Assembly: GCA_964366875.1 (NCBI GenBank)
Contig: CAYIVF010000003.1
Coordinates: forward strand, 1-48,074
Direction: 5' to 3'
Length of the DNA: 48,074 bases
Origin: an uncultured Candidatus Saccharibacteria bacterium
Lineage (GTDB): Bacteria; Patescibacteriota; Minisyncoccia; Minisyncoccales; Staskawiczbacteraceae
Below, piece after piece: positions 1,412 to 43,434 of this stretch. The position numbers and the translations under genes are program-made. The notes under the pieces were generated by a model. The model saw nothing but the letters and a program-made list of their open reading frames with translations. It was not told the DNA's origin and made no database searches. Within the stretch, counting starts at the first letter, position 1. Each line of letters opens with the position of its first letter.

Positions 1412-2152
1412 TTATATGTTGTCTATTATTTGTTTTAACTCAGCTCCCTGTTTCATTAAATAGCCGGCAGTTTCAAAAATGTCCGCAGTTATTTTAGAGT
1501 TTTTAAAATTATCTGTATAAAGCACTAAACCTGATAAAAGGCATTCAGCAGTTTCTTTTTTGATAATATTATTATTTATATTCTTTATTAAGTCAAAAAC
1601 CGCTTCTGTCAAAGAATGATTGCTTAGTAAGTTAATTTTACCAAAGTTTTCGTTATTTTGCTCGCCTGTGCTGAGCTGAGCCGAAGCATCAATGTTCAAA
1701 ACAGGAGAATCCAGCAAAAAACCAAAAGAATTCAATTTATCGGATAGGTGCGTTTTATAGTTTTTTATACCCAAGGTTATAATAAGGTCGGGCTTTGATT
1801 CCGAAAAATAAAAGGAGATATTGTCTTTTTTTATAGAGGAGCCCTTTTCTACGGTTAAGTGTATTTTAAGATCGTTGTCGTTTTTTTCATAATAGATTTG
1901 TGATATTTCGGCTATTTTATTTGGAATTGAGATTACAAAGTTTTTAGGATAGGAAATAAAGTCTAAGGATGGCGCCAAAAACTTAAGATTTTCCGGGATA
2001 GCCTCTATAATTAAGTTTACATTTTTGTTTAATTCTTTTAAAGTATAAAAAAGAGCCAATGCAGAAACTATGCCCTCTGGCTCTTGCGAAGGTATAAGAT
2101 AAATATTTTTAGCTTCCCCTATAATTTTTTTTATTTCTTCTGTATTTTCCAT
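1412..2152 (-). CDS. Degenerate DHH/exopolyphosphatase-related protein
   Basis: DHH-like layout (PDLIITLG, VLNID, N.NFG.IN, A.CLL.G...T..F) but no DHH catalytic triad. Confidence 0.6.
   Translation of the reverse strand: MENTEEIKKIIGEAKNIYLIPSQEPEGIVSALALFYTLKELNKNVNLIIEAIPENLKFLAPSLDFISYPKNFVISIPNKIAEISQIYYEKNDNDLKIHLTVEKGSSIKKDNISFYFSESKPDLIITLGIKNYKTHLSDKLNSFGFLLDSPVLNIDASAQLSTGEQNNENFGKINLLSNHSLTEAVFDLIKNINNNIIKKETAECLLSGLVLYTDNFKNSKITADIFETAGYLMKQGAELKQIIDNI
1661..1688 (+). repeat. Family A intragenic hairpin repeat (in DHH-like gene)
   Basis: GCCTGTGCTGAGCTGAGCCGAAGCA; encodes ASAQLSTGE. Confidence 0.7.
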
Positions 2153-2196
2153 TTTTCTGAATTACTATACCCTATTCGATTTTAAAAAATAAGTCA

Positions 2197-2700
2197 ATGT
2201 TAAAGAAATACACAACCAAAGATTTTAAACAAACTCAAAAACTGGGAGAAGCTCTTGCGAAAAAAATTTTAACCCTTCGGCAAGCTCAGGGCAAGAAAAC
2301 AGCTGTGGTTTTGAGTTTGCAAGGAAATTTGGGTGGAGGAAAAACAACCTTTTTGCAAGGTTTTGCCAAGGGACTGGGAATAAAAGAAAAAGTTTTAAGT
2401 CCCACCTTTGTAATACTGAAAAAATTTAGAATGCCGGCATTGAGCGGATTCAAATATTTTTATCATATTGATTGCTATAGGATAAAAAATCATAAAGATA
2501 TTACGCAATTGGGATTTAAGGAAATTATTTCTAATTCTGAAAACATTATAGCTGTTGAGTGGCCGGAGAAAATAAAAAAAGTTTTACCCAAAGATTCAAT
2601 TGTAATGAAATTTAAATTTATTTACCCTGAGAGAAGTCGAAGGGTTGCTCAAAACAAAAGAGAGATAGCTGTTAATTTTGAAAACGGCCTTTTAAAGTGA
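2197..2700 (+). CDS. tsaE: tRNA t6A biosynthesis ATPase TsaE
   Basis: LQGNLGGGKTT, SPTF, HIDCYR, VEWPE. Confidence 0.95.
   Translation: MLKKYTTKDFKQTQKLGEALAKKILTLRQAQGKKTAVVLSLQGNLGGGKTTFLQGFAKGLGIKEKVLSPTFVILKKFRMPALSGFKYFYHIDCYRIKNHKDITQLGFKEIISNSENIIAVEWPEKIKKVLPKDSIVMKFKFIYPERSRRVAQNKREIAVNFENGLLK
2273..2295 (-). repeat. Family A intragenic hairpin repeat (in tsaE)
   Basis: CCCTTCGGCAAGCTCAGGGCAAG; encodes LRQAQG. Confidence 0.85.
2625..2644 (+). repeat. Family A intragenic hairpin repeat (second copy in tsaE)
   Basis: CCCTGAGAGAAGTCGAAGGG; encodes PERSRR. Confidence 0.8.
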
Positions 2701-2711
2701 TACAATAAAAT

Positions 2712-3605
2712 ATGGAAGAGAAAAAGTTGATTATCGTAGATTCCAATAGTCTTTTGCACAGAGCTTTTCACGCCCTTCCTCCTTTGTCAACAAAATCCGG
2801 AGTTCAGACAGGAGCAGTTTACGGATTTCTGCTGACCTTATTTAAAGCTATAAACGACTTGAAAGCTAACTATGTCGTTGCTTGCTTTGATACAAAAGCA
2901 AAAACATTCAGGCACGAAAGGTTTCAAGAGTATAAAGCTCAAAGACCACAAACCCCAGATGGTATAGTGTCTCAAATACCAATTGCTAAAGAAGTTTTAG
3001 GAGCTTTCAAAATACCTGTATTTGCGATGGAAGGTTTTGAAGCAGATGATTTAATCGCTACGATTTGTAAATTAGCGATAGAACAGGAAAAAAACTTAGA
3101 GATTTATATTGTTAGCGGAGATTTGGATAATTTGCAGTTAGTAAATAAGAATATAAAAGTTTATACTTTAGGAAAAGGCATTAAGGATACTGTTATATAT
3201 GATAGAAATAGGGTTAGAGAAAGATTTGGGGTGGAACCCGAACAAATGGTTGACTTTAAAGCATTGACTGGCGACCCGTCGGACAATATTCCGGGAGTTG
3301 AAGGAATTGGAAAAAAGACAGCAGCAGAAATAATACAAAGATACGGCAGTATAAAAAACCTTTATGACGAGCTTTCTACAGATACAGCTGTGTTAAAGTC
3401 AAAAATAAAAGAGACGCTGAAGAAAAGCAAAGAAACAGCTTTTATGTCGCTTGAACTGGTCCAAACCAAAAAAGATGTAGATATAGATTTTAAAGTTCAA
3501 GATTGCAAGTTTGGAAACTTTGCCCTTGCAGAGGTTGAAAAAAAATTAAAAGATTTAGAGTTTAATACTCTTATAACCCGTTTATTATCATTAACTAATA
3601 ATTAA
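2712..3605 (+). CDS. Stand-alone 5'-3' exonuclease (Pol I N-terminal domain only)
   Basis: VDSNSLLHRAFHA, YKAQR, EADD, SGDLD, GDPSDNIPGV.GIG.KTA; ends at 297 aa with no polymerase domain. Confidence 0.92.
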   Translation: MEEKKLIIVDSNSLLHRAFHALPPLSTKSGVQTGAVYGFLLTLFKAINDLKANYVVACFDTKAKTFRHERFQEYKAQRPQTPDGIVSQIPIAKEVLGAFKIPVFAMEGFEADDLIATICKLAIEQEKNLEIYIVSGDLDNLQLVNKNIKVYTLGKGIKDTVIYDRNRVRERFGVEPEQMVDFKALTGDPSDNIPGVEGIGKKTAAEIIQRYGSIKNLYDELSTDTAVLKSKIKETLKKSKETAFMSLELVQTKKDVDIDFKVQDCKFGNFALAEVEKKLKDLEFNTLITRLLSLTNN

Positions 3606-3609
3606 ACTT

Positions 3610-4191
3610 ATGGCTAAAATTTCTTTTAAAATAGCTCTGCCGATAATTCTTGCAGGAATTTTTTCTATAGTCACCTTTATGGCGCTTGACTATGAGAAGT
3701 TGAGCATAGAATTTTATTTAGTTTTTTTTCTTTTGACAGTATTTGTATTTTTCTTCGGTTTTGCCATTGGCCAGAGTTTTGCTTCGCCTATTAGAAAATT
3801 ATTAAACAGAGCCGTGGAATTAAGCGGCGGAAATTTGTCCAGTAGAGCTTATTTGGAAACCAAAGACGAGTTGGCGGAGCTGGCAAAGGTTTTTAATAAA
3901 ATAGCCCAAGAACTTGAAGAAAGCCGCATTCTTCAAGGAGAAACAGAAAAATCAGTTGATATTAAAGTAAAAGCCAGAACACAGGCCCTAGAGGAAACGA
4001 TAAACGCGTTAGAGCAAAAAGTAAAAAACAGGACCATAGAGCTGGAAAGATTAATGCAAGAATCAAGAAAGCTGCAAGAAGGGGCAAAATCAAAAGAACT
4101 GCAAGCAAGAGAGCTCAAAAAAGAATTTGATATTTTAAGATCAAAAGTGGGAAAATACAAATCCAATAAAACAACAAACAATAATGCCTGA
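3610..4191 (+). CDS. Membrane protein with HAMP domain and coiled coil
   Basis: Two TM segments, HAMP pattern PIRKL...G.L...DELAELA..FN, then VKART..LE coiled coil. Confidence 0.8.
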   Translation: MAKISFKIALPIILAGIFSIVTFMALDYEKLSIEFYLVFFLLTVFVFFFGFAIGQSFASPIRKLLNRAVELSGGNLSSRAYLETKDELAELAKVFNKIAQELEESRILQGETEKSVDIKVKARTQALEETINALEQKVKNRTIELERLMQESRKLQEGAKSKELQARELKKEFDILRSKVGKYKSNKTTNNNA

Positions 4192-5059
4192 GCTACCAGA
4201 AGTAGAAACTACTGTGCGTGGTTTGAATAGCAAGGTCCTTGAAAGGACCTTTGTTGATGTTTGGTCAGATTGGGAAAAAATCATTAAAAAGCCGAAAGAG
4301 TTTTCGCAGTTTAAAAAAGAACTAAAAGATAAAAAGATAAAAAGAATCTGGCGCAGAGGTAAAAATATTATTTTTGATTTATCGGACGATTATTCTCTTT
4401 TAGTACATCAAAAAATGACGGGGCATTTGTTGTATGGAGATTGGAAGTTGGAATCTGGGATGTGGAAACCGAAAATAAAAGGGCCGTTGGAAGATCCGCA
4501 AAATAAATTTATTCATTTGCTTTTTTGGCTGGACAACGGAAAAATGCTTACTTTGTCAGATTTAAGGAAATTTGCCAAAGTTGAATTCCAGAAGACAAAA
4601 GAATTATTAGAATCAAAAGAGTTCAAAATTTTAGGACCGGAACCTCTTGAAAAAGATTTTACTTTTGAAAAATTTAAGGAAGCATTAAAAAAGAAAAAAG
4701 AGAAAATAAAACAGGTTTTAATGGACCAAAATGTGATTGCAGGCATTGGCAATATTTATTCTAACGAAGCATTGTGGCATGCTAAAATTCATCCAGAAAA
4801 AAACATTGCCAAATTAAACGAAAAAGAGTTAAAATTGCTTTACCAAGCCATTAAAAAAGTTTTAGAGCTGGGGGTAAAACTCGGCGGGGAAAGTTTTTCT
4901 GACTACAGAAAGCCCGATGGTTCAAAAGGCGATTTTGACACAGAAAGGAAGGCATATAAAAGAGAGGGTCAAAAATGTCATAGGTGCGGCGCAAAAATAA
5001 AAAGAATAAAATTTAGCGGCAGAAGCGCTTTTTTCTGTCCCAACTGTCAAAAACTATAG
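4184..5059 (+). CDS. mutM: Formamidopyrimidine-DNA glycosylase
   Basis: MPELPEVET, RRGK, GIGNIY, C-terminal zinc finger CHRC...CPNCQ. Confidence 0.97.
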   Translation: MPELPEVETTVRGLNSKVLERTFVDVWSDWEKIIKKPKEFSQFKKELKDKKIKRIWRRGKNIIFDLSDDYSLLVHQKMTGHLLYGDWKLESGMWKPKIKGPLEDPQNKFIHLLFWLDNGKMLTLSDLRKFAKVEFQKTKELLESKEFKILGPEPLEKDFTFEKFKEALKKKKEKIKQVLMDQNVIAGIGNIYSNEALWHAKIHPEKNIAKLNEKELKLLYQAIKKVLELGVKLGGESFSDYRKPDGSKGDFDTERKAYKREGQKCHRCGAKIKRIKFSGRSAFFCPNCQKL

Positions 5060-5060
5060 C

Positions 5061-5996
5061 ATGGTCATATTTCTTTACGGAGAAGATTCATACAGGTCAA
5101 AGAGAAAGCTGGAAGAGATAATCGAGAGTTATAAAAAAATTCACAAAAGCGGGCTGAATTTAATTTATTTTGATGCAGACAGTCAGGACTTTAAGGATTT
5201 TGCCAGCAATCTTAAAATTACCTCAATGTTTGATGAAAAAAAACTGATTGTTCTGAAAAACGTTTTTTCTAATGTAAAATTTCAAGAATGTCTTTTAGAA
5301 AACATAAAAAACTTAAAGGAAGTAAAAGATATCATCGTTGTTTATGAAAGTGCAGCAATAGACAAAAGAAACAAGCTTTTAAAAACATTAGAAAAAGAAG
5401 TTAAATGCCAGGAGTTTAATTTTTTACAGCCTTCGCTTCTTAAAAAATGGCTTAAACAAGAATTTGAAAAAAATAAAACAAAGATTAATCCTGAAGCAGA
5501 GGACCTTCTCATGGGCTTTGTGGGAAACAACCTCTGGCAAATGGCAAATGAAATAAAAAAACTTTCAGATTATAAAAGAGGCAGCGTCATAAAAAAAGAA
5601 GATGTTGAATTGCAAGTAAGAGCTAAGACCGAAAGCGATATTTTTAAAACGATAGACGCATTAGCCTCAAAAAATAAAAAGCAGGTCATTGGTCTTTTGC
5701 ATAAACACATAGAAAACGGAGATAGCCCCCTGTATCTCCTTTCAATGATAAGTTATCAGTTTAGAAACCTTTTAATAATTAAAGAATTGCAAGACGCGCA
5801 AAAGCCCTACGCGGTTATTGTAAAAAAAAGCGGCTTGCATCCATTTGCAGTCAAAAAGAGCTATGAGCTTTGCAATCGGTTCTCGTTCTCGCAGCTAAAA
5901 AAAATCTACCAGAAGATTTTTCAGATAGATTCAGATATTAAAACAGGGAAAATTGAAGCGGAAACAGCGTTAGACCTATTAGTCTCGGAGATATAA
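5061..5996 (+). CDS. holA: DNA polymerase III delta subunit
   Basis: FLYGED start, SMF, NEIKKL, IF...DA, D..IKTG; convergent with rpsT as is typical. Confidence 0.9.
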   Translation: MVIFLYGEDSYRSKRKLEEIIESYKKIHKSGLNLIYFDADSQDFKDFASNLKITSMFDEKKLIVLKNVFSNVKFQECLLENIKNLKEVKDIIVVYESAAIDKRNKLLKTLEKEVKCQEFNFLQPSLLKKWLKQEFEKNKTKINPEAEDLLMGFVGNNLWQMANEIKKLSDYKRGSVIKKEDVELQVRAKTESDIFKTIDALASKNKKQVIGLLHKHIENGDSPLYLLSMISYQFRNLLIIKELQDAQKPYAVIVKKSGLHPFAVKKSYELCNRFSFSQLKKIYQKIFQIDSDIKTGKIEAETALDLLVSEI

Positions 5997-5997
5997 A

Positions 5998-6258
5998 TTA
6001 CTTTCGTTCAATAAGCTTGGTTATTCTGGATTTTCTCCTGCCAGCAGTATTCTTTTTTATAACGCCAACTTTAGCTGCCTTATCTAAAGCCTTGTAAAGG
6101 TTGGGTAACAGTTTTTTAGCTTCTGCATTTTTTTTTGCAGACACTAAAACACCAATCTCTTTAATGAGACTTTTCATCTTATTTTTATAAACAAGATTCT
6201 GTATTCTGCGCCTTGCTGACTGGCGGATAGCTTTTTTAGCTGATTTTGTTATAGCCAT
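5998..6258 (-). CDS. rpsT: 30S ribosomal protein S20
   Basis: MAITKSAKKAIRQ, LDKAAK.GVIKKNTA.R.KSR. Confidence 0.97.
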   Translation of the reverse strand: MAITKSAKKAIRQSARRRIQNLVYKNKMKSLIKEIGVLVSAKKNAEAKKLLPNLYKALDKAAKVGVIKKNTAGRRKSRITKLIERK

Positions 6259-6330
6259 ATTTTTGTATTTTTTAATTTACCATAGTATAATAAAAGAAAC
6301 AAGAGTAATATTAATTTTATTTTAAATTAT

Positions 6331-7629
6331 ATGCCAGAACAATTTTCATCAAATGAAACTCCGCCAGAAACTGAGCAAAAAAAATCACCAAACATTGAGC
6401 CCGATTTAGATATTGCGAAAAGAGAATTGGAAAAGCTTTATAGCCCGGAAAAATCATCAATTGACGTTGGTTTAGATGTTGGAAAAGGCATTGAAAAAGA
6501 ACCGGAGATATTGGTTGATAAATCAATAGAAGCTAAACCAGAGAAAACTCCAGAAAAAGCACTAGAACAACTAAAAACAAAAATATCGGCCCCAGAGGAG
6601 GTAGAAAAATCGATAGAAGAAGTGCGCCAGCAAGTAATTGAAGCCTCAAAAAAGGAATTAGCAGATAACCTAAAAGCCATAAACGAGGCCAGAGCAAAAA
6701 AAGACAGAGCAGCTGAGTATTCTCTTTTGGAAAAATCGGAGTTGCCATTTGAGATGTCCGAGGGGAAAATTTTAAAAGAAGAAGCAGTTAAAAGAGCAGA
6801 TGTTGAGCTTAAGGAAGAAAGGCTTGTCAGAATGAAGCCCGAGGAATACAGAGAAAAATTTACGGGTCGGGCGGAAGACCTAGCTGAACAAAGAAAAAGA
6901 TCTGAAGTTTTGTCAAAGGTTTTAGCAAGGCGTTGGTCCTTTCTTTCCAATGAAGAAAGATTGCAATACACATCTCAAGATGGGGGCATAGATTACAATA
7001 AATTTAATGTGGAGATGGTAGGTAAAATAGACGCTAAAAGGCAAGAGTTAGAGAAAAAAGGTATTGTTGTTTCTGCAAACGCTCTTTACGCTATGGCAGA
7101 GCGGGGAATGAGGCCGGAAGATATTCAAGTAAGAGGATTTTGGGGGAAACTATTTATAGGCAGCGACATAAAAATACCGCAAGACCCGTTATTTAGAGGA
7201 GAAAAGCCCAGAGCTCACGAATTGTTTAAAAATGAATTTGAAGAAATGGTAAAAGGAAGCGGGATAGTAAGAGGTTTAGAGAGCGAGTTTAATCAATCTA
7301 TAAAAGATGAGGCCAAAGCATCAATTGAGAGGCAGATTAAGAGAGGCCGGGAAATGTGGAGAGCAAAGAAGCAAAAACACACGAGAGCTATAATACAAGA
7401 AACCGTTGATGGATATAAAAAACAGCAAGAAGAAGCAGAGCGAAGAGAAGAAAAAAAGAAAGCTAAAAAACCATCAATTGAAGTAGTGGCTAGAATAGGT
7501 GAAAAAAGAACGCCTGAGCGGGTGGAAGAAATGAAAAAAATAAGAAAACAGGTTGAGGCAGATATAAAGAGAAAAAAGAAGCCAACAAAAAAGTCCGCTC
7601 CCAAAAGACCAAAAGGCAAGGGTAAATAA
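6331..7629 (+). CDS. Hypothetical highly charged protein
   Basis: 432-aa E/K-rich ORF with Lys-rich tail, followed by a terminator. Confidence 0.75.
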   Translation: MPEQFSSNETPPETEQKKSPNIEPDLDIAKRELEKLYSPEKSSIDVGLDVGKGIEKEPEILVDKSIEAKPEKTPEKALEQLKTKISAPEEVEKSIEEVRQQVIEASKKELADNLKAINEARAKKDRAAEYSLLEKSELPFEMSEGKILKEEAVKRADVELKEERLVRMKPEEYREKFTGRAEDLAEQRKRSEVLSKVLARRWSFLSNEERLQYTSQDGGIDYNKFNVEMVGKIDAKRQELEKKGIVVSANALYAMAERGMRPEDIQVRGFWGKLFIGSDIKIPQDPLFRGEKPRAHELFKNEFEEMVKGSGIVRGLESEFNQSIKDEAKASIERQIKRGREMWRAKKQKHTRAIIQETVDGYKKQQEEAERREEKKKAKKPSIEVVARIGEKRTPERVEEMKKIRKQVEADIKRKKKPTKKSAPKRPKGKGK

Positions 7630-7647
7630 TTGGTAAATAATTTTTAC

Positions 7648-7678
7648 AAAACTCCGCCTTAGGTGGAGTTTTTTGTTT
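7648..7678 (+). terminator. Intrinsic terminator
   Basis: ACTCCGCC-TTA-GGTGGAGT followed by T-run. Confidence 0.8.
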
Positions 7679-7756
7679 GTATTTGAAAACAAGCGTGTTA
7701 TTATATAAAAACAGTTGTTTATCCGCACCTTGACACCAACATAAGGAATATATGCC

Positions 7757-9328
7757 ATGAGTGAAAGAAAGGTATTTTTGTGCCGGCTTATCAGGCCTGC
7801 AAATCCGCGAGGACGGGTTAATATCTATAGTCAATTTACCAATAGAACCACGACCTACGGGCTTGTAATGGTGGCGACTGTCATCAATAAGCTTTGGGGC
7901 TGGCGGGTTGAGGTAATTGATGAAGAAAATTATCGCGGTCCAAGAGGCAGAGATGGCCTCCCCAACCATGAGGTCTTACAGCAAGAGAACCCAGCTGATG
8001 TTGTTGGATTTTACTGCGGATTGACAAGCACCATAGAGCGCGTCTGGGAATTAGCAGACTTTTACAAGTCACAGGGAGTAATTACTCTAGCTGGTTCTTG
8101 GCACGCGCACTATTGTCCAGAAGAAACCCTGCGCCATAATATTGATTTGGTGGTGCATGGCGACGCTGAGATGGAAATCATAAAAGTTTTTGCCAATATT
8201 GACAGCGGCCGTCCTTTGCACGAAGGTGTTGGGGGCGTTTCGTATTTGGATAACGATAAGGCGAGGTATGTTCTGCCAAATCTTCGAGATGCTGGTCAGA
8301 TACCCGACTGCGACGAGAGGTTGGTTTTATTAGAAAACAGACTGACCTGCGAAGAATTGAGTCGGTTGCCATATCCTGATTTTGGGCTTGTAAAGTATGC
8401 CAGAATCAAGATATATCCTATTGGCAGAATCCGTGGCTGCAGTATGGGGTGCAAATATTGCACCGTAAAAGGTGGCGTACGGTTTGCCAGCGCCGAGTGG
8501 TTTTTTGGAGTAATTGACTGGCTTGTCAAAACAAGAAGAGCCGAAAGCTTTTTCATTGTAGATGACAGGTCAGAAGAAGATCTCCAAGGAACCCTCAAGT
8601 CTTTTGGGATGGTGGCCGAGAGATATGGCAGAAGACTGAGATTTACTGTTCAGATGCGCTTGGCAGCAGCAAAAAACATCATGCTTTTGGACATCATGAA
8701 AAAAGCTGGTGTTAGAGCAGTCTGTATCGGGTTGGAGTCGCCTATTGAAGAAGAGTTGAAGGCGATGAAAAAGGGACTGGCAGCAAAAGTAATGCTCGGT
8801 CTTCTTAGAGTCTGGCGCAGATACATGAAAGTGCACGGAATGTTTATCTTCGGCTTTCCTGTAGCTGGATTCAAAATGAGCATCGCAGAAAAAATACGGA
8901 GATTCAAAAGATTCATCCAAAGGGCGAGGTTGGATTTTGTTCAGGTGCTTCTGCCCATTCCTTTGCCAGGGAGCGAGCTCTATAGCGAGTACAAAGCGGC
9001 TGGAAAACTCTTCCCGTTGCCAGTTGCTGGATGGAATAAGTACGATGGAAACTTCCTCTTGCTTAAACTAGACAGCAACGTGAGCATGCGGGAGTTTCAG
9101 TCAGCTCATGTAAAAATCATGGCATGGTTTTACGGCCCATTCAGCCTTTTTAGGATGATTTACAGGACTCTGACCCTACCTGTAGATTATTTCTTGCGAG
9201 GTTGGGAATCATGGCATTCTGATTGGGGCCGCGAGGTTATATTGTGGATTGGCCACAATATTGTTACGCGCTGGCTTAAGACCAGAGAAAGCGATGAGCA
9301 CATAGCAAACCTGGAACAAAAAAGCTAG
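7757..9328 (+). CDS. B12-binding domain radical SAM protein
   Basis: RGCSMGCKYC (CxxxCxxC), IGLES, GMFIFG, PLPGSELY; N-terminal cobalamin-binding-like region; GC-richer than flanks. Confidence 0.88.
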   Translation: MSERKVFLCRLIRPANPRGRVNIYSQFTNRTTTYGLVMVATVINKLWGWRVEVIDEENYRGPRGRDGLPNHEVLQQENPADVVGFYCGLTSTIERVWELADFYKSQGVITLAGSWHAHYCPEETLRHNIDLVVHGDAEMEIIKVFANIDSGRPLHEGVGGVSYLDNDKARYVLPNLRDAGQIPDCDERLVLLENRLTCEELSRLPYPDFGLVKYARIKIYPIGRIRGCSMGCKYCTVKGGVRFASAEWFFGVIDWLVKTRRAESFFIVDDRSEEDLQGTLKSFGMVAERYGRRLRFTVQMRLAAAKNIMLLDIMKKAGVRAVCIGLESPIEEELKAMKKGLAAKVMLGLLRVWRRYMKVHGMFIFGFPVAGFKMSIAEKIRRFKRFIQRARLDFVQVLLPIPLPGSELYSEYKAAGKLFPLPVAGWNKYDGNFLLLKLDSNVSMREFQSAHVKIMAWFYGPFSLFRMIYRTLTLPVDYFLRGWESWHSDWGREVILWIGHNIVTRWLKTRESDEHIANLEQKS

Positions 9329-9335
9329 GCGCATG

Positions 9336-9360
9336 GGACGAGCGATCGTCCTTTTTTATT
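9336..9360 (+). terminator. Intrinsic terminator of the radical SAM gene
   Basis: GGGACGA-GCGA-TCGTCCT followed by T-run. Confidence 0.8.
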
Positions 9361-9457
9361 TGGCCTGAGAAAAAATAAAATTTTAAACAAAAAAATAGGG
9401 CATACGCGATGCGCAGCCCTTTGCTTTTGGAGTTCTCCCCAGCAGTTAGCCGTTTGG

Positions 9458-9871
9458 CTAGTTGCCGGTTTTCGTCGGCGCCTTTTTCTCCGGTGGCGGA
9501 AGGAGAGGTCTGAACCTGTCCTTGCCTACCACGAGAACCTTTTTGACGCCGAGCGGCCCTTGAAATTCGCCGACATATTGCCGTCCTTGGCTGTCCTCAG
9601 CTACGACTGCAGTTGTGCCTTCGGGAGTTCTTTTCTCCCACTGAATCTGGTAGAAATCCTTTTCATCGGCTTCAGTCGCTTGTTGCGCTCGGCAGACCGA
9701 TATCGTTGCCGATGCGGTGCCTATTGCAACGAAGATAAGACAGACAAGAAGGATTGCCCCCGTCTTCCAAGGCGCCCATCTTCCACGGTGGCCGGCAATT
9801 CCTGCTATTATAGCAGCAACTAAGCCGAGTGCCGCTATAAACAAACTAAAAACAAACACCAGCGTCTCCAT
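9458..9871 (-). CDS. Hypothetical membrane protein (2 N-terminal TM)
   Basis: Two hydrophobic helices; AAGGAG 7 nt upstream; TTGACA-17-TAATTT promoter (9928-9956); GC-rich. Confidence 0.75.
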   Translation of the reverse strand: METLVFVFSLFIAALGLVAAIIAGIAGHRGRWAPWKTGAILLVCLIFVAIGTASATISVCRAQQATEADEKDFYQIQWEKRTPEGTTAVVAEDSQGRQYVGEFQGPLGVKKVLVVGKDRFRPLLPPPEKKAPTKTGN

Positions 9872-9942
9872 TTTCGCACTCCTTGTGTTGAGAACTTTAG
9901 CACAACCCAGCGTTGTGCCTATTATTTAAATTAGCAAACTAT

Positions 9943-11934
9943 TTATGATTTGTCAATAGTGGGGGTAGAAGAGAGTTTTTTAATTAGGTCCCTGATTTCT
10001 GCCGCCCTTTCAAAATCAAGATTTTTTGCCGCAATTTTCATTTCTTTTTCTAATAATTTTTTATCATGCACTTGCCAGAATTCAGAGACAATATCTTCTT
10101 TTTTAGAAAATCCCCAGTCTCGTATATCTTTAATTATGGGTTTTGGAGTTATTTTATTTTTTTTATTGTATGCTGCCTGTATTTTTCTTCTTCTATTTAT
10201 TTCGTTTATGGCAGACTTCATAGAGCCGGTTATTTTGTCGGCGTATAAAATTATGCGGCCATCGGGGTTTCTTGCCGCTCTGCCCATTGTTTGTATTAAT
10301 GTTGTTTTGTTTCTTAAAAATCCTTCTTTATCTGCGTCTAAAATTGCAACTAAACTAACTTCTGGCAAATCAATGCCCTCTCTTAAAAGGTTAATGCCCA
10401 CCAAAACATCATATTTGCCCTCGCGCAGATTTTTTAATATTTCCGGCCTTTCCAATGTTTTTACTTCAGAGTGCAAATATTGAGTTTTAATGCCTTTTTC
10501 TATTAAGTAATCAGAAATTTCTTCAGCCAGCCTTTTTGTTAAGGTTAATACTAAAACTCTTTGTTTTTTTGTAATTTCTTTTTCTATTTCTCCGATTAAA
10601 TCTTTAATTTGGTTTTCTGTCTTTTTTATTTCTATAGAAGGCTCTAAAAGTCCGGTTGGCCTTATCAGTTGTTCTATAATATATTTGCCTGCTCTTTGTT
10701 TTTCAAAATCAGCCGGAGTTGCTGATACGTAAATTGTTTGTTTTTGCCTTTTTTCAAACTCTGAAAAAGTTAACGGCCTGTTGTCTATGGCAGAAGGCAA
10801 TCGGAAGCCAAAATCAACTAAAGTTTTTTTCCTTATCTTATCTTGTACCGCCATTGCCCTTATTTGAGGCAAGGAAACGTGAGATTCATCAATAAACATT
10901 AGAAATCCGCCCTGCCCTGAACTTGTTGAAGGGTTAAAATAATTAAAGTAGTCAACTAAAGAAAAGGGCGCCTGTCCCGGCTTTCTAAATTCTAGGTGGC
11001 TTGAATAGTTTTCTATTCCATGGCACCAGCCGGTTTCTGAAAGCAGCTCTAAGTCGTAGTTTGTCTTTTGCTCTAATCTTTCAGCTTCTAACAATTTCGG
11101 GGCACCCTCTGGCTCGTTTTTTAGTTCTTTTAATCTGGCTTCTAGTTCCAGTTTTATATTATTGATGGCAATATTAACTTTGTCTTGCGGGGTTACCCAA
11201 AAATGAGCTGGGAAAATCTTTAACTTTGGCCCCAAGTTTTTATACTTTTGGCCAAGGCCTGGTTTTGTTTCAGATATTTTTTCTATTTTGTCTCCCGCAA
11301 ATTCTACTCTTAATATTTTTTCACCGGTAACGATGTAAATTTCAATTATGTCTCCCCGTGCTCTGAATGTGCCGGGTTTAAAATCAATATCATTTCTTTG
11401 GTATTGCAGGTTTGTTAGAAGAGAAAAAAAGTCCCTTCTCTTTATCCCTTGTTTTAACCTTATTTCTAAAGAAATGTTTTCGTAATTTTCAGGCGAACCA
11501 ATGTTATATATGCAAGAAACAGAAGCGACAACAATCACATCTTTTCTCATAGTAACGTCCTGCACTGCTGCGTGCCTCAATCTGTCTATCTCTTCATTTA
11601 TTTTTGCATCCTTTTCTATATATGTGTCTGATTGCGGTATATATGCTTCGGGCTGATAATAGTCATAGTATGAGACAAAGTAGTGGACGGCGTTATTTGG
11701 AAAAAACTCTTTGAACTCCTGGTATAACTGGGCAGCTAAAGTTTTGTTGGGAGATATAATTAAGGTTGGCTTTTGTATTTTTGAAATAACTTTTGCCATT
11801 GTAAAAGTTTTTCCAGATCCCGTAATGCCTAAAAGCACCTGGTCTTTAATACCAGCTTTTAGGTTTTTTGTGAGCTTGGCGATGGCTTGCGGTTGATCGC
11901 CTCTGGGTTTAAACTTGGAAACTAATTTAAACAT
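9943..11934 (-). CDS. uvrB: Excinuclease ABC subunit B
   Basis: [44 protein letters not shown]. Confidence 0.98.
10911..10933 (+). repeat. Family A intragenic hairpin repeat (in uvrB)
   Basis: CCTGCCCTGAACTTGTTGAAGGG; encodes PSTSSGQG. Confidence 0.85.
11096..11116 (-). repeat. Family B intragenic repeat (in uvrB)
   Basis: Reverse complement CGAGCCAGAGGGTGCCCCGAA; encodes EPEGAP. Confidence 0.7.
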
Positions 11935-23231: not shown

Positions 23232-23252
23232 AAATTTAGTTATTTTTTTATG

Positions 23253-23598
23253 TGGAGATGGGGAGTTTGATCTCCCGTCTGAAAAGTTTTTAAAAGTAAT
23301 TCTACAAGTTTAGTTAATTTTAGTGTTCGAGCATTAAATAAAAAATTAACAAAATTTTTAACGCCTTATCTCCTTAGTTTCGATAACTTACCGGAGAAAT
23401 AAATTATCTATCCTAATAATATAACACCTTCATTCGTTTATTAGGAGTCAACGGTGAAGATGCAGCATTAAGCGAAAGCTAATGCTGGTTGCTTATTAAA
23501 TAAATTAGCAATTATGTTTTTTCTCAGAAGATTAAAGAGCCCCGAGAATGCTCAACTTGCCTTACTTAAAAGAACTATTCATCGAAACAATCATCCCC
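23253..23598 (-). ncRNA. ssrA: tmRNA
   Basis: Acceptor stem GGGGAUG/CAUCUCC with G3:U wobble and A discriminator, T-stem GGGAG/CUCCC, tag ORF 23468-23509 ANLFNKQPALAFA*; adjacent to smpB. Confidence 0.95.
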
Positions 23599-35452: not shown

Positions 35453-35462
35453 AAAAGACAAA

Positions 35463-36734: not shown

Positions 36735-36740
36735 AATCAT

Positions 36741-37772: not shown

Positions 37773-37777
37773 ATTTG

Positions 37778-38242: not shown

Positions 38243-38306
38243 GGAAATTTCCTCAAAATTATGATAAAATTAGTTAAAATAAAGATATTTTAACTAATTA
38301 TACCTT

Positions 38307-39551
38307 ATGCCGAAGGAAATTGTTATCCCTAAAAAAGAATTAAGAAAATTGTATTTAACTGATAAATTATATATTTCCCGAATAGCTAGATTTTATAATT
38401 GTTCTAGCTCAAGGGTTTGGTCTCATTTATGGAGGTATGGTATCGCCCCTAACCGTTGCAAAGAAGTATATATTAGCAAGAAAGATCTTAAAAATTTATA
38501 CTTAAATGAAAAAAAATCCAGTAGAGATATTGCTAAAAAGTATAATTGCGGCAAGTCGATTGTCGAAAGTGAATTGAAAAAATATAAAATACCATTAAGA
38601 AGCAAGTCTGAGGCGTTAAAACTTATTATCCATCCCGAAAAATATATAATTTCTCGTAAGACATTAGATGAATTTTATTGGTATAGAAAACTCTCTACAT
38701 ATAAAATTGCCGAAAAATTCGGATGCAGTCCCTCTGCAATCTTCCATAAACTTATAAGATTTAACATACCAAGAAGAAGCGATGTGGAGGGTATTATATT
38801 GACAAATGAAGAAAGGTGTAAAAAAATATCTAAAGCAGTTACGCTATATGCTAAAAAAGATTATGATGGTTCAGAAATTGAAAAAGCTTATTTAATAGGT
38901 TTTTGTTTGGGCGATATGAACGTTAGTAAAAGAAAATATGGAGAAACTATTTATGTTTCTTCTTGTACAACAAAAAAAGAACAATTGGATTTGATGAAAG
39001 ATTTATTTAGAAAATTTGGACATATAAATGTAAATAAAAGTAAAAAGTTGGCAAAGAATGGAAAAATCGATAGTTTTCATTTCATGGCAAACCTAAATAA
39101 GTCTTTCGATTTTTTGACATCAAGAGAAGATGATATAAAAAAGTGGATTTTCCAAAATGAAGTTTTTTTCTTGTCATTTTTAGGGGGATATACTGATGCT
39201 GAGGGATCATTCGGGATTTACAATAATTTTGGTTCATATACTTTGGCAAGCTATGATAAGAATATAATTAGTAAAGTTTTTAGAGGACTGGATAAAGTGG
39301 GAATTAGTCTGGAGAGACCGATAATCAGAAATAAAAAAGGGTATACTGATAAAAGAGGCATTAAAAATCATTGCGACCTTTGGTGTCTTAGAATAAGAAG
39401 AAAAAATGAGTTGTTTAATTTTATAAATATCATTGAGCCATACATAAAACATGCCAAAAGAAAAAGAGATTTGATAAAAGTAAAAAAACATATAGCGTTG
39501 AAAATGAATTATGAAAAAAATATATCTTACAACTACGCTTCCATACGTTAA
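38307..39551 (+). CDS. Free-standing LAGLIDADG homing endonuclease with three N-terminal HTH-like repeats
   Basis: AYLIGFCLGD and FLGGYTDAEGS; three repeats of I.K..L..LY....S...IA..Y.C......L..Y.I. Confidence 0.85.
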   Translation: MPKEIVIPKKELRKLYLTDKLYISRIARFYNCSSSRVWSHLWRYGIAPNRCKEVYISKKDLKNLYLNEKKSSRDIAKKYNCGKSIVESELKKYKIPLRSKSEALKLIIHPEKYIISRKTLDEFYWYRKLSTYKIAEKFGCSPSAIFHKLIRFNIPRRSDVEGIILTNEERCKKISKAVTLYAKKDYDGSEIEKAYLIGFCLGDMNVSKRKYGETIYVSSCTTKKEQLDLMKDLFRKFGHINVNKSKKLAKNGKIDSFHFMANLNKSFDFLTSREDDIKKWIFQNEVFFLSFLGGYTDAEGSFGIYNNFGSYTLASYDKNIISKVFRGLDKVGISLERPIIRNKKGYTDKRGIKNHCDLWCLRIRRKNELFNFINIIEPYIKHAKRKRDLIKVKKHIALKMNYEKNISYNYASIR

Positions 39552-40932
39552 CGCAGAACCCCACATAGGATTTGCGTTAGAAATTATTCAAGCTGATGTG
39601 ATGGCCCGTTATTATAGAGAAAACGGTAACGAAGTTTTTTTTAACACCGGTACGGACGAACACGGATTAAAAGTTTTTCGTAGAGCAAAAGAGAAAGGGG
39701 TTAGCCCGCAAGTTTACTGCGATAAGCTCGCCGAAAGATATAAGGAGCTAAAGCAAACTCTGAATTTAAGCTACGACAGCTTTATTAGGACCACGGATGA
39801 GAATCATATTAGATCGGCACAGGAGTTTTGGACCACTTGTTATAATAATGGCGATATTTATAAAAAAAATTACAAGATTAAATATTGTGTCGGTTGCGAG
39901 TTAGAAAAAACAGATTCAGAACTTGTTAATGGTAGGTGCTCTACACATCCGAACCAAGAAATAGAAATTATTGAAGAAGAGAACTATTTTTTCCGCTATT
40001 CTAAATATCAGAAAAAACTTTTGGATTTTTATAAGAGAAATCCAAATTTTGTTGTGCCAGAAGCAAGATTTAAAGAAATTAAAGAATTTACAAAACGAGG
40101 ATTAGAGGATTTTAGCATTTCTAGATTAAAAGAAAAAATGTCATGGGGCGTGCCGGTTCCCAATGACGATAAACACGTAATGTTTGTCTGGTTTGAAGCT
40201 TTGGTAAGTTATGTTTCTGCATTAGGGTGGCCAAATAGTAAAAAATTTAATGATTTTTGGCCAGGTTTTCAAATAGCGGGGAAAGATAATCTTCGGCAAC
40301 AGTCTTCCATGTGGCAAGCGATGCTTATGTCTGCCGGTTTGCTACCATCAAAACAAATTTTCATACACGGTTTTATAACTATCGGAAGCCAAAAAATGTC
40401 AAAATCATTGGGTAATGTGATTGACCCGTTTGAGCTAGTTAATAAATATGGTACGGATAGCGTTAGATATTATCTTTTAAGAGAGATACCTCCGACAGAG
40501 GATGGTGATTTTACTTACGAGAAGTTTAAGACAAGGTATAATTCTGATTTAGCTGGCGGCATAGGTAATTTAGTGGCAAGGGTTTTAGGCGTAGCAGGCA
40601 AGACAATTGTAAAAAAATCAAAACCGACAAAGGCAACTAGTGAAAGAATAAAAGAAGCAAAAAAGAATTATGCGTTAGCATTAGAAAAGTTTAAGTTTAA
40701 TGAGGCGTTAGCAGTTGTGCAAGAGTTGATAAGCTATTGCGATAAATATATAAATGATGAAAAGTTATGGGAGACGAAAAAGCCCGAGGTGATTGGTGAT
40801 TTATTCTATGCGCTGGACGAAATAAGTACTTTGCTTTTACCATTTTTACCAGAAACCGCAGAAAAGATTAAAAAAGCAGTTGCGACCCAAGGGGTACCCC
40901 GAAAATTAGAGTCGTTATTTCCGAGAGTATAA
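39511..40932 (+). CDS. metG: Methionyl-tRNA synthetase
   Basis: TTTLPYVN..PHIG, GTDEHG, FIRTT, EENYFF, KMSKSLGN. Confidence 0.97.
   Translation: MKKIYLTTTLPYVNAEPHIGFALEIIQADVMARYYRENGNEVFFNTGTDEHGLKVFRRAKEKGVSPQVYCDKLAERYKELKQTLNLSYDSFIRTTDENHIRSAQEFWTTCYNNGDIYKKNYKIKYCVGCELEKTDSELVNGRCSTHPNQEIEIIEEENYFFRYSKYQKKLLDFYKRNPNFVVPEARFKEIKEFTKRGLEDFSISRLKEKMSWGVPVPNDDKHVMFVWFEALVSYVSALGWPNSKKFNDFWPGFQIAGKDNLRQQSSMWQAMLMSAGLLPSKQIFIHGFITIGSQKMSKSLGNVIDPFELVNKYGTDSVRYYLLREIPPTEDGDFTYEKFKTRYNSDLAGGIGNLVARVLGVAGKTIVKKSKPTKATSERIKEAKKNYALALEKFKFNEALAVVQELISYCDKYINDEKLWETKKPEVIGDLFYALDEISTLLLPFLPETAEKIKKAVATQGVPRKLESLFPRV
40883..40903 (+). repeat. Family B intragenic repeat (in metG)
   Basis: CGACCCAAGGGGTACCCCGAA; encodes TQGVPR. 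Confidence 0.85.
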
Positions 40933-40934
40933 TT

Positions 40935-40967
40935 AAAAAAAGCCCGCAGCTTTGTTAAGTTGCGGGT
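40935..40967 (-). terminator. Terminator for the TIM-barrel gene
   Basis: A-run then GCCCGCAGCTT-TGTT-AAGTTGCGGGT. Confidence 0.75.
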
Positions 40968-41001
40968 CTGTAATTCTCGGAAAAGACGGGCTTTCAGAGA
41001 A

Positions 41002-42045
41002 TCACTTCTTGTCTGCTCCCATCCCTGCCTCAAAGGAGGTCTCGGCCACCTTGAAACAGCAGTTTTTGTTGACGAACCCGACGCCGTCAGCGCTGACTGT
41101 GTCAAGGTCAACCACAGCGTCTTCAGCTTCCACAACCAGGGGAGCTGTTTCTTTTCCTTGAATTTGGCAGTACCGTTGAGGATAGCCGATTGTGACAAGG
41201 AACTTGGCAAACTCGACAAGGTTGATGTCTCCTTTGCCAAGAAGAGTGAACTGCATCGCCCTTTGCGGCCACCTCGGTTCCATTGACCGCAGAGGAAGGC
41301 CGGGAATCACAAGGTGGTTCTTCATATGGCAGGCGACTACGTACTCAGCCACCCGATTGAACCGCGTCCGCCAATCCTCTCCTTCCCAGCAGTGAGAAGG
41401 GTCGGCGTTGACTTGGAGACAAGGGTCGGAACCACAGATGCTCACCAAATGGAGAAAGTCCTCGGCGCAGACAGCGGCGGTGCCAGGGTGAATCTCGTGG
41501 GCGAGATAGATGCCGAGTTGGCGAGCGTGTTCCCTTATTCTCTTCGTTTTGACCACGAAACGTTCCTCGCCTTCTTTGACGAGGTCGTAGCCGGGGCCGC
41601 TCCAGAAGCCCCAGGGATAGCCGGTGGCAATTTCCCAGCCAAAAGCCGTGCCCCAGAACATCGGGACGATTCTGACGCCGAGTTCGGCGCAGAGATCGAG
41701 CAGGTAGAGAATGTAATCCTCAGCCCATTGCTCGATTTCCCTAGGCGGCTCTTGAGCCACCTCGGCCGGAATAAAGGACCTGATGGTCGGGCTGTTGGTC
41801 CAGGCAGTGGTGTGGACCCAGAAAGGACAGTGGGCGCTGACGCCGTCGAGCTCGAGCTTGTATCTTTGGTACATGTTCCTGATTTCCGAGGCAGAAAGGA
41901 ATCTGCTCCCTTTGGCCTCCAGCATGAAATTCGAGGGCTGAGCACCCGTTGCGCCCGCATCCCTGGCAAACTGCAGGAATCCCAAGAGCCCCTTAGGACT
42001 GTGCTGGGCGCCCTCTACGCTGCTGTGAAACACTTTCTTCCCCAT
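41002..42045 (-). CDS. Sugar phosphate isomerase/epimerase (xylose isomerase-like TIM barrel)
   Basis: HEIHPG, NADPSH, H.K, E.ED metal-ligand motifs; AAGGAG before ATG 42045; strongly GC-rich. Confidence 0.85.
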   Translation of the reverse strand: MGKKVFHSSVEGAQHSPKGLLGFLQFARDAGATGAQPSNFMLEAKGSRFLSASEIRNMYQRYKLELDGVSAHCPFWVHTTAWTNSPTIRSFIPAEVAQEPPREIEQWAEDYILYLLDLCAELGVRIVPMFWGTAFGWEIATGYPWGFWSGPGYDLVKEGEERFVVKTKRIREHARQLGIYLAHEIHPGTAAVCAEDFLHLVSICGSDPCLQVNADPSHCWEGEDWRTRFNRVAEYVVACHMKNHLVIPGLPLRSMEPRWPQRAMQFTLLGKGDINLVEFAKFLVTIGYPQRYCQIQGKETAPLVVEAEDAVVDLDTVSADGVGFVNKNCCFKVAETSFEAGMGADKK

Positions 42046-42118
42046 GTTCGTTCTCCTTCTGTTTAGAGTTTTGGGGGATAGAACAGACCTGATTTTCAAA
42101 GTTCGGAGTTAATTGTTG

Positions 42119-42188
42119 ATTTAAGCAGATGTCATATATTTTGTCAAACAAATATAGAGTTTGACAAAATATATGTTTTTGCTATAAT
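42119..42188. promoter_or_regulatory. Back-to-back sigma70 promoters within a perfect 17-bp inverted repeat
   Basis: CATATATTTTGTCAAAC (42133-42149) / GTTTGACAAAATATATG (42159-42175); rightward TTGACA-16-TATAAT, leftward TTGACA-17-TTAAAT. Confidence 0.8.
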
Positions 42189-42271
42189 ATAATCAGCTCG
42201 TTTCTATTTTTTCAGGTCATGATGACTTGAGAGAGCGAGACCCTCCCTATAGTTAGAAGGAGTAGACAGCC

Positions 42272-42529
42272 ATGTTGATACTATCCCGCATGAAGGACGA
42301 AAGTATCATTATCGGCGACAACATCAGAGTCGTCGTGGTGGAGATCCGGAGGGACAAGGTCCGCCTTGGGGTTGAGGCCCCAAGGGAAGTACCCGTTCAC
42401 CGGCGTGAGGTTTTTGATGCGATTCATCGCGGTGAAAAGAGAGAGTCCGCGTCCTCTCAGCCCTCCTCTACTCAGTCCTCTTCTCCTCCACCACTGCCCA
42501 CGTTTGATGAAGGGAAATGGCTGGAGTAA
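42272..42529 (+). CDS. csrA: Carbon storage regulator CsrA
   Basis: MLILSR...ESIIIGDNI.V.V......VRLGVEAPREVPVHRREV. Confidence 0.95.
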   Translation: MLILSRMKDESIIIGDNIRVVVVEIRRDKVRLGVEAPREVPVHRREVFDAIHRGEKRESASSQPSSTQSSSPPPLPTFDEGKWLE

Positions 42530-42537
42530 GGAATCGT

Positions 42538-42570
42538 GGCAGGATGCTATGCAACCTGCCTCTTTTTTTA
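42538..42570 (+). terminator. Intrinsic terminator of csrA
   Basis: GGCAGG-ATGC-TAT-GCA-A-CCTGCC followed by T-run. Confidence 0.75.
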
Positions 42571-42591
42571 CATTTATGCTAAAATATAGTC

Positions 42592-43434
42592 ATGATTTTA
42601 GACACACATTCGCATTTAAATTTTAAAGCATACGATAATGACAGAGATGAAGTTGTAAAAAGAACCTTGCAAGGTTCTGTCTGGATGATTAATGTCGGCA
42701 CAAAATATGAAACTTCAAAACAGGCGGTTGAGATAGCTGAAAAATACAATGATGGGGTTTATGCGGCAATAGGCCTTCATCCTATATATGCATCTGCTGA
42801 ATTTCAAAAAGTAAAAACAGACCCTGAAGAAGGAGATTTTTTTGTTAAAGAAGAAGTGTTTGATTATGAGAGATATAAAAGGCTTGCCCTGAGCGCTAGC
42901 CGAAGGGTTGTGGCCATCGGCGAGATTGGCTTGGATTATTATTACAAACCGAAAACCAATGTAAAATTAGAGCAATTTAAGGAAAAGCAGAAAAGAGTTT
43001 TTATTGAACAGTTAGAATTTGCAAAAGAATTAAATTTGCCAGTGATTATTCATTGCAGAATGGCGCATAACGACATTATAGAAATTTTAAAAACACAGCA
43101 GGTTAGAGGAGTAATTCATTGTTTCACGGGCAATTTGGAAGAGGCGCAGAGATATATGGATTTGGGATTTTATATTGGTATTAACGGAATAATTTTTAAA
43201 CTAGATTTAGATGAGGTTATTAAAAATGCTCCATTGGACAAAATTTTAGTTGAGACAGATTGCCCGTATCTAATTCCTCCTTTGGCTCGCCGAAGCCCAG
43301 AGGGCGAAGGCGGCCGCAACGAGCCGATTTTTGTAAAACATGTAATACAAAAAATAGCTGACTTAAAAGGAATCAGTTTTAATGAAGTTGCAGAGACAAC
43401 AACTCAAAACGCCAGAAAGTTATTTAAGATATAG
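42592..43434 (+). CDS. TatD family hydrolase/DNase
   Basis: DTHSH, GLHP, GEIGLDY, IHCR, HCF, ETDCPY, RNEP. Confidence 0.95.
   Translation: MILDTHSHLNFKAYDNDRDEVVKRTLQGSVWMINVGTKYETSKQAVEIAEKYNDGVYAAIGLHPIYASAEFQKVKTDPEEGDFFVKEEVFDYERYKRLALSASRRVVAIGEIGLDYYYKPKTNVKLEQFKEKQKRVFIEQLEFAKELNLPVIIHCRMAHNDIIEILKTQQVRGVIHCFTGNLEEAQRYMDLGFYIGINGIIFKLDLDEVIKNAPLDKILVETDCPYLIPPLARRSPEGEGGRNEPIFVKHVIQKIADLKGISFNEVAETTTQNARKLFKI
42883..42907 (+). repeat. Family A intragenic hairpin repeat (in tatD-like gene)
   Basis: CTTGCCCTGAGCGCTAGCCGAAGGG; encodes LALSASRR. Confidence 0.85.

Follow-up and report, generated by a model that had tools for sequence, protein, structure and literature searches.

How does one short, GC-rich hairpin come to lie in reading frame inside several unrelated proteins of a single small genome? 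The question was raised by a 48,074-nucleotide (nt) stretch of DNA (the window), which is contig C3 (GenBank CAYIVF010000003.1) in the assembly of an uncultured Candidatus Saccharibacteria bacterium; this source genome comprises 691,631 bp in 52 contigs, has a GC content of 37%, and is 92% complete. An initial annotation of the window described a hairpin motif, termed Family A, at five places within open reading frames (ORFs) and interpreted it as a minimal non-autonomous element that enters protein loops without breaking the frame. Our analysis showed Family A to be a DNA repeat of approximately 19-27 nt that is dispersed through the genome. It is probably a selfish repeat of the repetitive extragenic palindromic (REP) type with tolerated in-frame copies, and the best overall explanation, which we hold with moderate confidence, is that a selfish REP-type hairpin is copied by host processes.

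Copies of Family A and covariation of the stem

The five copies in the window lie at 1661-1688 (+), 2273-2295 (-), 2625-2644 (+), 10911-10933 (+), and 42883-42907 (+). The sequence, the Pfam matches, and the ORFs confirmed these coordinates, the position of every copy inside a long ORF, the two orientations, the different frames, and the peptides originally quoted; two copies are sense and three are antisense to the host gene (Table 1). The consensus first proposed was only partly upheld, because it matches the copies at 2273-2295 and 42883-42907 and none of 100 shuffled sequences, but the other three copies differ from it by 1-3 bases or in the stem. The alignment showed that the copy at 1661 indeed carries the covarying stem TGCT...AGCA in place of CCCT/AGGG.

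A search of the source genome for CCCTGAGC-N(1-7)-CGAAGGG identified 8 copies without mismatch, 4 with a single mismatch, and 11 with two mismatches. Alignment of 23 copies from the whole genome gave the consensus nnCTTGCCCTGAGCTTGTCGAAGGGTT, a hairpin with a GC-rich, covarying stem of 4-5 bp, a fixed core GAGC-(loop)-YCGA, and a 5-nt loop. The element is usually preceded by a CTTG tail on its 5' side and followed by TT on its 3' side; the 5' flank reads CTTG in 8 and CCTG in 2 of the 23 copies, and GTAG or CGTC in none. With a structure of five pairs in the outer stem and a single inner G-C pair, pairing was observed in 95.7% of the alignment cells and fell to 61% when the partner was shifted by one column. 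Double-sided changes were present in four of the six stem pairs, and none of 500 shuffles reached the observed covariation. Between the outer stem and the inner pair, each arm has two further positions, which invariably read GA on both arms; they could form tandem G.A pairs, with a single G-C pair closing the 5-nt loop. In the UvrB copy and in a copy on contig C49, GAAC...TTGA replaces GAGC...TCGA, so that the inner pair has changed from G-C to A-T in a compensatory manner.

The predicted folding was ordinary for the base composition (RNA, -4.8 to -9.1 kcal/mol, z +0.1 to -2.6; DNA, -1.8 to -3.3) under nearest-neighbour energy models, which do not score tandem G.A pairing. Exceptional thermodynamic stability was rejected on these unremarkable energies, and the call of a hairpin thus rests on covariation rather than on energy.

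A covariance model built from the 23 aligned copies yielded 31 matches in the genome at E<=1 and 26 at E<0.01, the latter being the 23 seeds together with C6:42-84, C40:402-433, and C37:157-188. A REP-type repeat in the broad sense is recognized by numerous dispersed copies of an imperfect palindrome of 20-40 nt, and Family A, with its covarying stem, fits this description. The model found no copy in the window beyond the five; a decayed copy suspected at 2437-2454 could not be sustained, since it gave no match even at E<=1 and has the same length as the closest orthologue. No Rfam family matched the motif above its gathering score, with only transfer-messenger RNA (tmRNA) recognized in the window and only signal recognition particle RNA in 18 motif-bearing loci of other phyla.

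Seventeen of the 23 copies, 6 sense and 11 antisense, lie in genes with a Pfam identity or clear orthologues. The host genes in the window are tsaE (two copies), uvrB, tatD, and ORF 1412-2152; the others encode a MurC-type ligase (two copies), FtsZ (two copies), RmuC, RNase HII, methionine aminopeptidase (MetAP), a metallophosphoesterase, a ComF-like protein, a carbonic-anhydrase-like protein, a DUF6938 protein, and, at its edge, ribosomal protein L10. Given that long ORFs make up 0.90 of the source genome, the copies are only mildly depleted from genes, and the predominantly extragenic location that characterizes REPs was not observed. The element can be read without a stop in five of its six frames, and the sixth, which contains TGA, was not seen among the sense copies. 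The use of both orientations and five reading frames bears out the earlier view that conservation acts on the nucleotides rather than on a peptide.

Table 1. Positions of the Family A copies in the window and of the genes that contain them (scores of copies are from the covariance model).
Feature	Position	Strand	Context and encoded residues	Score or support
Family A copy	1663..1694	+	Antisense in ORF 1412-2152(-); DASAQLST	27.3 bits, E 9e-5
Family A copy	2267..2297	-	Antisense in tsaE (site 1); TLRQAQGK (residues 26-33)	39.1 bits, the highest in the genome; exact match to the earlier consensus
Family A copy	2619..2650	+	Sense in tsaE (site 2); YPERSRRVAQ (residues 143-152)	31.2 bits
Family A copy	10909..10939	+	Antisense in uvrB; NPSTSSGQG, directly before the FLMFIDESH strand	34.3 bits
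Family A copy, longer loop (GCGCTAGC)	42881..42913	+	Sense in tatD; LALSASRRV	31.6 bits; exact match to the consensus
Host gene, conserved protein	1412..2152	-		0 Pfam families; BLAST orthologues beside tsaE in 23 relatives
Host gene tsaE	2197..2700	+	Two copies	PF02367, E 1.3e-31
Host gene uvrB	9943..11934	-		UvrB Pfam domains; PDB match E 3e-233
Host gene tatD	42592..43434	+		PF01026, E 1.2e-79

Several individual copies showed features of their own. The sense copy at C12:17038-17056 occupies residues 6-12 of the L10 frame, ahead of the Pfam domain, which begins at residue 39; the true start codon could be downstream of the copy, which would then belong to the leader and not to the protein. 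In the copy at C6:42-84, the loop is enlarged by a second small hairpin (GGGTACCCTTTGGGTCC), which looks like an element nested in an element. The match at C40:402-433 (22 bits, E 0.0035) is a Family-A-like hairpin, ATCCTGAGAGCAATCGAAGGAT, in 23S rRNA, and it occupies the exact place of a variable helix that has a similar length in the bacterial large-subunit rRNA model and in approximately 15 relatives; this could be chance, or an rRNA helix could have been replaced by the element. The copy at C14:9884 resembles a terminator acting in both directions. A number of copies are found close to contig ends, no more than a few hundred bases away, or on contigs that are very short and GC-rich (C13, C34, C48, C49, C6, C37, and C40), and the repeats may thus be breaking the assembly.

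Filled and empty alleles among relatives

Orthologues of the host genes were compared across 30 related genomes (relatives of 0.3-0.8 Mb); in size and composition, the source genome resembles those of candidate-phyla-type bacteria. Clean gains were seen at five sites. The segment at MurC site A (+21 nt) was absent in all 27 covering rows (26 distinct genes, because one gene of genome G006 was listed twice), and at TsaE site 2 (+24 nt), 26 of 28 orthologues had the short form. The UvrB site gained 18 nt relative to the closest orthologue, and 20 of the 23 rows were without the segment, in agreement with the earlier statement that UvrB carries extra residues between DYF and FLMFIDESH. The metallophosphoesterase site (+24 nt) was filled in the source genome and G008 and empty in four genomes (2 of 6 filled). 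ORF 1412-2152 gained 18 nt relative to the closest relative; the spacing from NID to NFGK is 13 residues here, 7 in that relative, and 6 in most others.

Net gains were smaller at the remaining sites. MurC site B gained 12 nt, TsaE site 1 gained 9 nt relative to most orthologues (the closest relative being empty), and TatD gained 6 nt relative to the common form LAKSKKV, which reads LALSASRRV here. RmuC gained 3 nt relative to three orthologues and 0 relative to one, RNase HII gained 0 relative to one orthologue in a hypervariable stretch, and MetAP gained 0 in five of five orthologues, G-E-K-L-V-E-G having become G-P-E-L-V-E-G. The two copies in FtsZ fall in its lysine-rich N- and C-terminal regions, for which no alignment could be obtained. 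This range of net gain, from +24 down to 0 nt, indicates that the element often overwrites native codons, and about half the events were replacements of native codons rather than additions. The proposal of in-frame insertion accordingly stands in that the copies are in frame and most orthologues are without the segment, but simple addition is not the rule. Orthologous segments of equal length, the observation named at the outset as speaking against insertion, occurred at one or two sites outside the window. No target duplication was visible by eye at the filled and empty pairs of UvrB, TsaE site 2, MurC site A, and the metallophosphoesterase. At E<=0.001, the number of copies per genome ranged from 0 to 49 among 31 relatives, 24 of which had at least one.

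The sequencing runs that contain the stretch are labelled as groundwater or sediment metagenomes, with no RNA run among the 19 listed. Comparison with contigs of other runs was informative for positions 2157-3066, the uvrB copy being covered too thinly to be read. Contigs of runs X6 and X9, which come from different studies, match 2029-3066 at approximately 90% identity; they are without 9 letters between 2276 and 2295 (TsaE site 1) and have no gap at TsaE site 2, which makes site 2 the older of the two. Position 2632 of the window is A, whereas the contigs of X2, X6, and X9 have C, restoring the GAGC core of TsaE site 2; in X2, a near-identical population, C accounts for 24.4 of the 29.3 depth.

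The same codon was occupied repeatedly. A UvrB tree was built from 20 of the 23 rows, with two partial genes and one gene with an internal stop left out. Each of the three filled alleles had an empty allele as its sister (support 97, 99, and 95), and forcing the filled alleles into a single clade cost 144 log-likelihood units (approximately unbiased test, p-AU 4.7e-5). Passage of a filled uvrB allele between genera was rejected because nucleotide identity in the 120 nt on each side tracks the gene tree. TsaE site 1 was filled in the source genome, G018, and G001, and the TatD site was filled in the source genome, G014, G011, G004, and G002 and decayed in G016. The filling of one codon in non-sister lineages implies either repeated site-specific gain or precise loss.

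Position of the inserts in proteins

The initial annotation placed the inserts in protein loops, and this was true of some sites. In the AlphaFold model of TsaE (mean pLDDT, the predicted local distance difference test score, 91.2), the site 2 insert falls within a predicted coil at residues 142-154 between the last two strands, and its 10-residue block has a mean pLDDT of 69. In UvrB, the extra residues lie between DYF and the DESH-bearing strand, where the solved Bacillus UvrB (2fdc_A) is 10 residues shorter. The FtsZ copies are in disordered regions. TsaE site 1, by contrast, is at the end of the helix at residues 10-31 and is predicted to prolong that helix.

Search for a mobilising gene

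The absence of a recognizable mobilising enzyme, first remarked for the window, extended to the source genome, in which neither PF01797 (Y1/RAYT) nor PF07282 (TnpB-type) had a match. PF01797 likewise gave no match in G401 (76 copies) or in G337 (64 copies, complete). The genomes G340 and G259 each have two PF01797 matches adjoining ORFs of approximately 410 residues, with no motif flanking them. PF01541 (GIY-YIG) had one match in the source genome, in a 410-residue frame running off contig C37, which we take to be UvrC. RAYT, TnpB, and GIY-YIG proteins were thus rejected as mobilisers, each being either not found or not flanked by the motif.

The same core in other bacteria

Among 401 sampled genomes of the phylum, 191 contain the pattern CCTGAGC-N(3-6)-CGAAGG, with approximately 1,195 matches in total, and the backward control gave at most one match per strand per genome. 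An exact 19-mer of the motif was found at no fewer than 120 loci of the species collection (at least 143 matches) in many phyla, and its reversed control was found at 33 loci with one match each. The 19-mer matches listed include Bacteroidota, Cyanobacteriota, Alpha-, Beta-, and Gammaproteobacteria, Actinomycetota, Chloroflexota, Acidobacteriota, Planctomycetota, Nitrospirota, and several candidate phyla, and cultured isolates are among them. In GC-rich genomes, inspection by eye revealed that a second copy in inverted orientation, with a different stem, the same core, and complementary flanks, frequently accompanies the motif; such inverted doublets are REPIN-like. In a Staskawiczbacteria record (L042), the motif at 414-432 abuts, by eye, an apparent tRNA 3' end on the opposite strand.

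A longer form was found in G337, a relative of the same phylum with one complete contig of 984,181 bp and 32% GC. It has 64 copies of a subfamily of approximately 45 nt that shares the core, begins with the tag CGTCAT in 50 of the 64 copies or TGTCAT in 6 (56 of 64 with CGTC or TGTC), and has A-T pairs at the first two stem positions. The hairpin is followed by ATCTC, giving the tail CTC, in 59 copies. Fifty-eight of the 64 copies are intergenic, although ORFs occupy 87% of that genome. The orientation is that of the leading strand in 50 of the 64 copies, compared with 654 of 918 genes, and 35 of the 45 copies between co-directional genes share the direction of those genes. Copies cluster at 106-131 kb and 742-842 kb, and tandem arrays occur at 108,194-108,483 and 775,339-775,460, with periods of 68 and 52 nt.

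Since the core recurs across the phylum and many other phyla and forms part of a CGTC-tagged repeat in G337, the description of Family A as a new, self-contained minimal element had to be abandoned. By its sequence, Family A belongs to a lineage of hairpins with the same core that spans many phyla and includes longer, CGTC-tagged, mostly intergenic REP-type repeats. In the source genome, the element is reduced to the bare hairpin, with about three quarters of the copies in ordinary housekeeping genes.

Comparison with known repeats

A search of full-text literature, with subscription journals, figures, and supplements outside its reach, found neither the core (on either strand) nor the six encoded peptides nor such inserts in these phyla. 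Miniature inverted-repeat transposable elements resemble Family A in being non-autonomous, in having many copies, and in sometimes lying in frame within genes; they are longer, carry the terminal inverted repeats of a parent insertion sequence (IS), and produce a target-site duplication. Family A differs from them in showing, by eye, no duplication at the filled and empty pairs, and no IS-type gene was detected through PF01797 or PF07282. The small dispersed repeats of heterocyst-forming cyanobacteria, reportedly mobile and a few tens of bases long, resemble Family A in their very small size and in having no known transposase.

Small dispersed repeats are reported from Nostocaceae only (PMC5861425). 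GTAG REPs and REPINs, which are mobilised by RAYT (Bertels and Rainey 2011, PMC3116915; PMC3733652), are short, GC-rich, imperfect hairpins that are dispersed and variable in copy number, as is Family A; they differ in the GTAG tag and the RAYT gene, neither of which was found here, and Family A is mostly intragenic in the source genome. Rickettsia palindromic elements (PMC10969869) also lie in frame in unrelated housekeeping genes of a reduced genome and are apparently compatible with the protein fold. They are approximately 150 bp long (about 100-150) and encode a conserved peptide of their own (PMC10969869), whereas Family A spans 19-27 nt, uses five frames, and often replaces native codons.

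The closest published counterparts are CGTC-tagged REPs, described as short palindromic repeats of several phyla with no dedicated transposase (Di Nocera, De Gregorio, Rocco 2013, PMC3733652). They include intragenic, in-frame units in uvrB and other repair genes, and their copy number varies strongly among relatives; each has an unpaired CGTC (or TGTC/CCTC) tag, a stem of 8-9 bp that begins with two A-T pairs, a loop of 4-5 nt, and a 3-nt tail (PMC3733652). Family A as a whole resembles them in its intragenic units, its variable copy number, and the failure to find an associated transposase, and the G337 subfamily further shares the tag, the A-T start of the stem, and the loop size. The copies of the source genome differ from the published description of this superfamily, which comprises four families. 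They have CTTG or CCTG and never CGTC (0 of 23), no A-T start, and a TT tail instead of CCA; their stem is shorter, with 4-5 Watson-Crick pairs, two G.A pairs, and one G-C pair closing a 5-nt loop. They are also mostly single and mostly genic, whereas CGTC REPs form head-to-head dimers.

How the element may spread

In the explanation that we favour, the element would be selfish and non-autonomous. The replication or repair machinery of the host would produce new copies from an existing one, by template switching or short-patch copying, and no dedicated cut-and-paste transposase would be involved. Selection would then remove copies that break the frame, bring in the stop-containing frame, or fall in constrained parts of a protein, and the survivors would be those in loops, at the ends of helices, or in disordered linkers, positions that tolerate 6-8 residues rich in Gly, Ser, Arg, Gln, and Pro. 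Host-mediated copying is favoured because no enzyme and no target duplication were found and because the element overwrites native codons and changes the net length by anything between 0 and +24 nt; we propose this step tentatively. A host function of the hairpin is unlikely for the intragenic copies because both orientations occur, and the intergenic subfamilies may have one.

Several observations weigh against this explanation. The repeated filling of the same codon and the possible precise loss fit a sequence-specific enzyme at least as well, and in a genome that is 92% complete and divided into 52 contigs, a mobilising gene could be missing or unrecognised. The compensatory G-C to A-T change in UvrB and the conservation of the loop across phyla suggest that the structure itself is under selection, which copying alone does not explain. 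Homology-guided targeting was tried with weight matrices of the half-elements, which scored the empty sites against other positions of the same genes; the median percentiles at 10 sites were 0.27-0.85, and homology-guided copying is thus unsupported at the 11-12 nt scale. Short matches of 5-6 nt between target and element were noted by eye in UvrB, TatD, and the metallophosphoesterase. Finally, that the inserted codons are read through is presumed from the DNA.

The strongest alternative to host-mediated copying, which we nevertheless regard as unlikely, is a dedicated, unrecognised trans-acting enzyme, such as a single-stranded DNA nuclease or transposase encoded by the genome, a host, a phage, or a plasmid, that would recognise the GAGC...YCGA core and the 5' tag and insert or excise the element precisely. 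An invariant core within a covarying stem is expected of a structure-specific recognition site, and the conserved unpaired tag of the G337 subfamily agrees with this. The filling of the same codon in non-sister lineages, together with empty alleles that are all of one length, points in the same direction. The leading-strand bias in G337 recalls single-strand transposons, but it equals that of the genes and may reflect transcription. No Y1/HUH match was present in the source genome, G401, or the complete G337, no TnpB-type match was present in the source genome, and the sole GIY-YIG match is the candidate UvrC at a contig end. The variable net length and the overwritten codons are also unlike clean insertion, and the published CGTC REPs likewise have no dedicated transposase (PMC3733652).

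A broader reading, to which we assign a slightly lower probability still, is that the GAGC-loop-YCGA hairpin constitutes one cross-phylum lineage of transposase-less mobile hairpins, the CGTC REP lineage. In ultra-small, AT-rich genomes, it would have shrunk to approximately 25 nt and would repeatedly write itself into the same housekeeping codons by a site-selective mechanism that relies on host replication and repair alone or on an enzyme class not yet linked to mobility. If true, this would be a novel way for DNA to move, one that regularly supplies proteins with new surface loops and perhaps also replaces rRNA helices.

It is improbable that the hairpin is instead a functional nucleic-acid signal selected in place, acting in mRNA (stability, pausing, or a protein-binding site) or in DNA, with the protein change as a side effect. 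The compensatory changes do maintain pairing, and the core is conserved across phyla; the intergenic placement in G337 and the alignment of copies with co-directional genes resemble those of REP-type 3' elements. The terminator-like copy at C14:9884 and the family-like hairpin in place of the native 23S helix would also agree with a signal. Both orientations occur within genes, however, and the reverse complement turns the G.A pairs into C/T mismatches. Orthologues in sister genera do without the hairpin, the number of copies varies widely among relatives, the folding energies are not exceptional, and Rfam offers no match.

That the motif merely reflects chance or base composition, a peptide conserved as such, or faulty assembly carries almost no weight and was refuted for the core set of copies: although some weak matches, namely 47 with three mismatches and the model matches above E 0.01, are probably noise, and the MetAP and RNase HII copies equal their orthologues in length, shuffled sequences failed to match the consensus, backward controls were near zero, five reading frames on both strands exclude a peptide motif, and contigs from independent sequencing runs carry the copies, as do cultured isolates belonging to other phyla.

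A selfish REP-type repeat with tolerated in-frame copies would show that selfish DNA within protein-coding genes, which is known chiefly from Rickettsia, also reaches bacteria of the candidate-phyla type and can be as small as approximately 25 nt. It also ties gene-dwelling copies, by sequence, to a cross-phylum repeat core that has no known mobilising enzyme, and these small, gene-dense genomes supply many clean filled and empty pairs for working out how such repeats move. The inserts inflate apparent protein divergence and create lineage-specific loops in markers such as UvrB, FtsZ, and MurC; we advise that annotation and phylogenomic pipelines mask them in these lineages.

Other inserts and features of the window

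Other short, GC-rich, in-frame inserts unlike Family A were observed in the same genes. At 43283-43328, TatD reads LARRSPEGEGG in the source genome and G014, compared with 3-4 residues elsewhere. UvrB orthologues carry inserts of 8-29 residues at six other sites (loci L004, L009, L012, L014, and L023), and further such inserts are present in the tsaE orthologue loci L153, L166, and L179. In G002, a different, perfect palindrome, CCTGCCTGCCGGCAGGCAGG, occupies the very same place as TsaE site 2. A scan for all short GC-rich islands, by which further families might have been defined, proved too unspecific.

The window also contains a tmRNA gene at 23250-23598 (-), recognized through Rfam with 96.5 bits. 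Two intervals, 8001-10000 and 40001-42000, have a GC content of approximately 47%, compared with 31-40% in the window.

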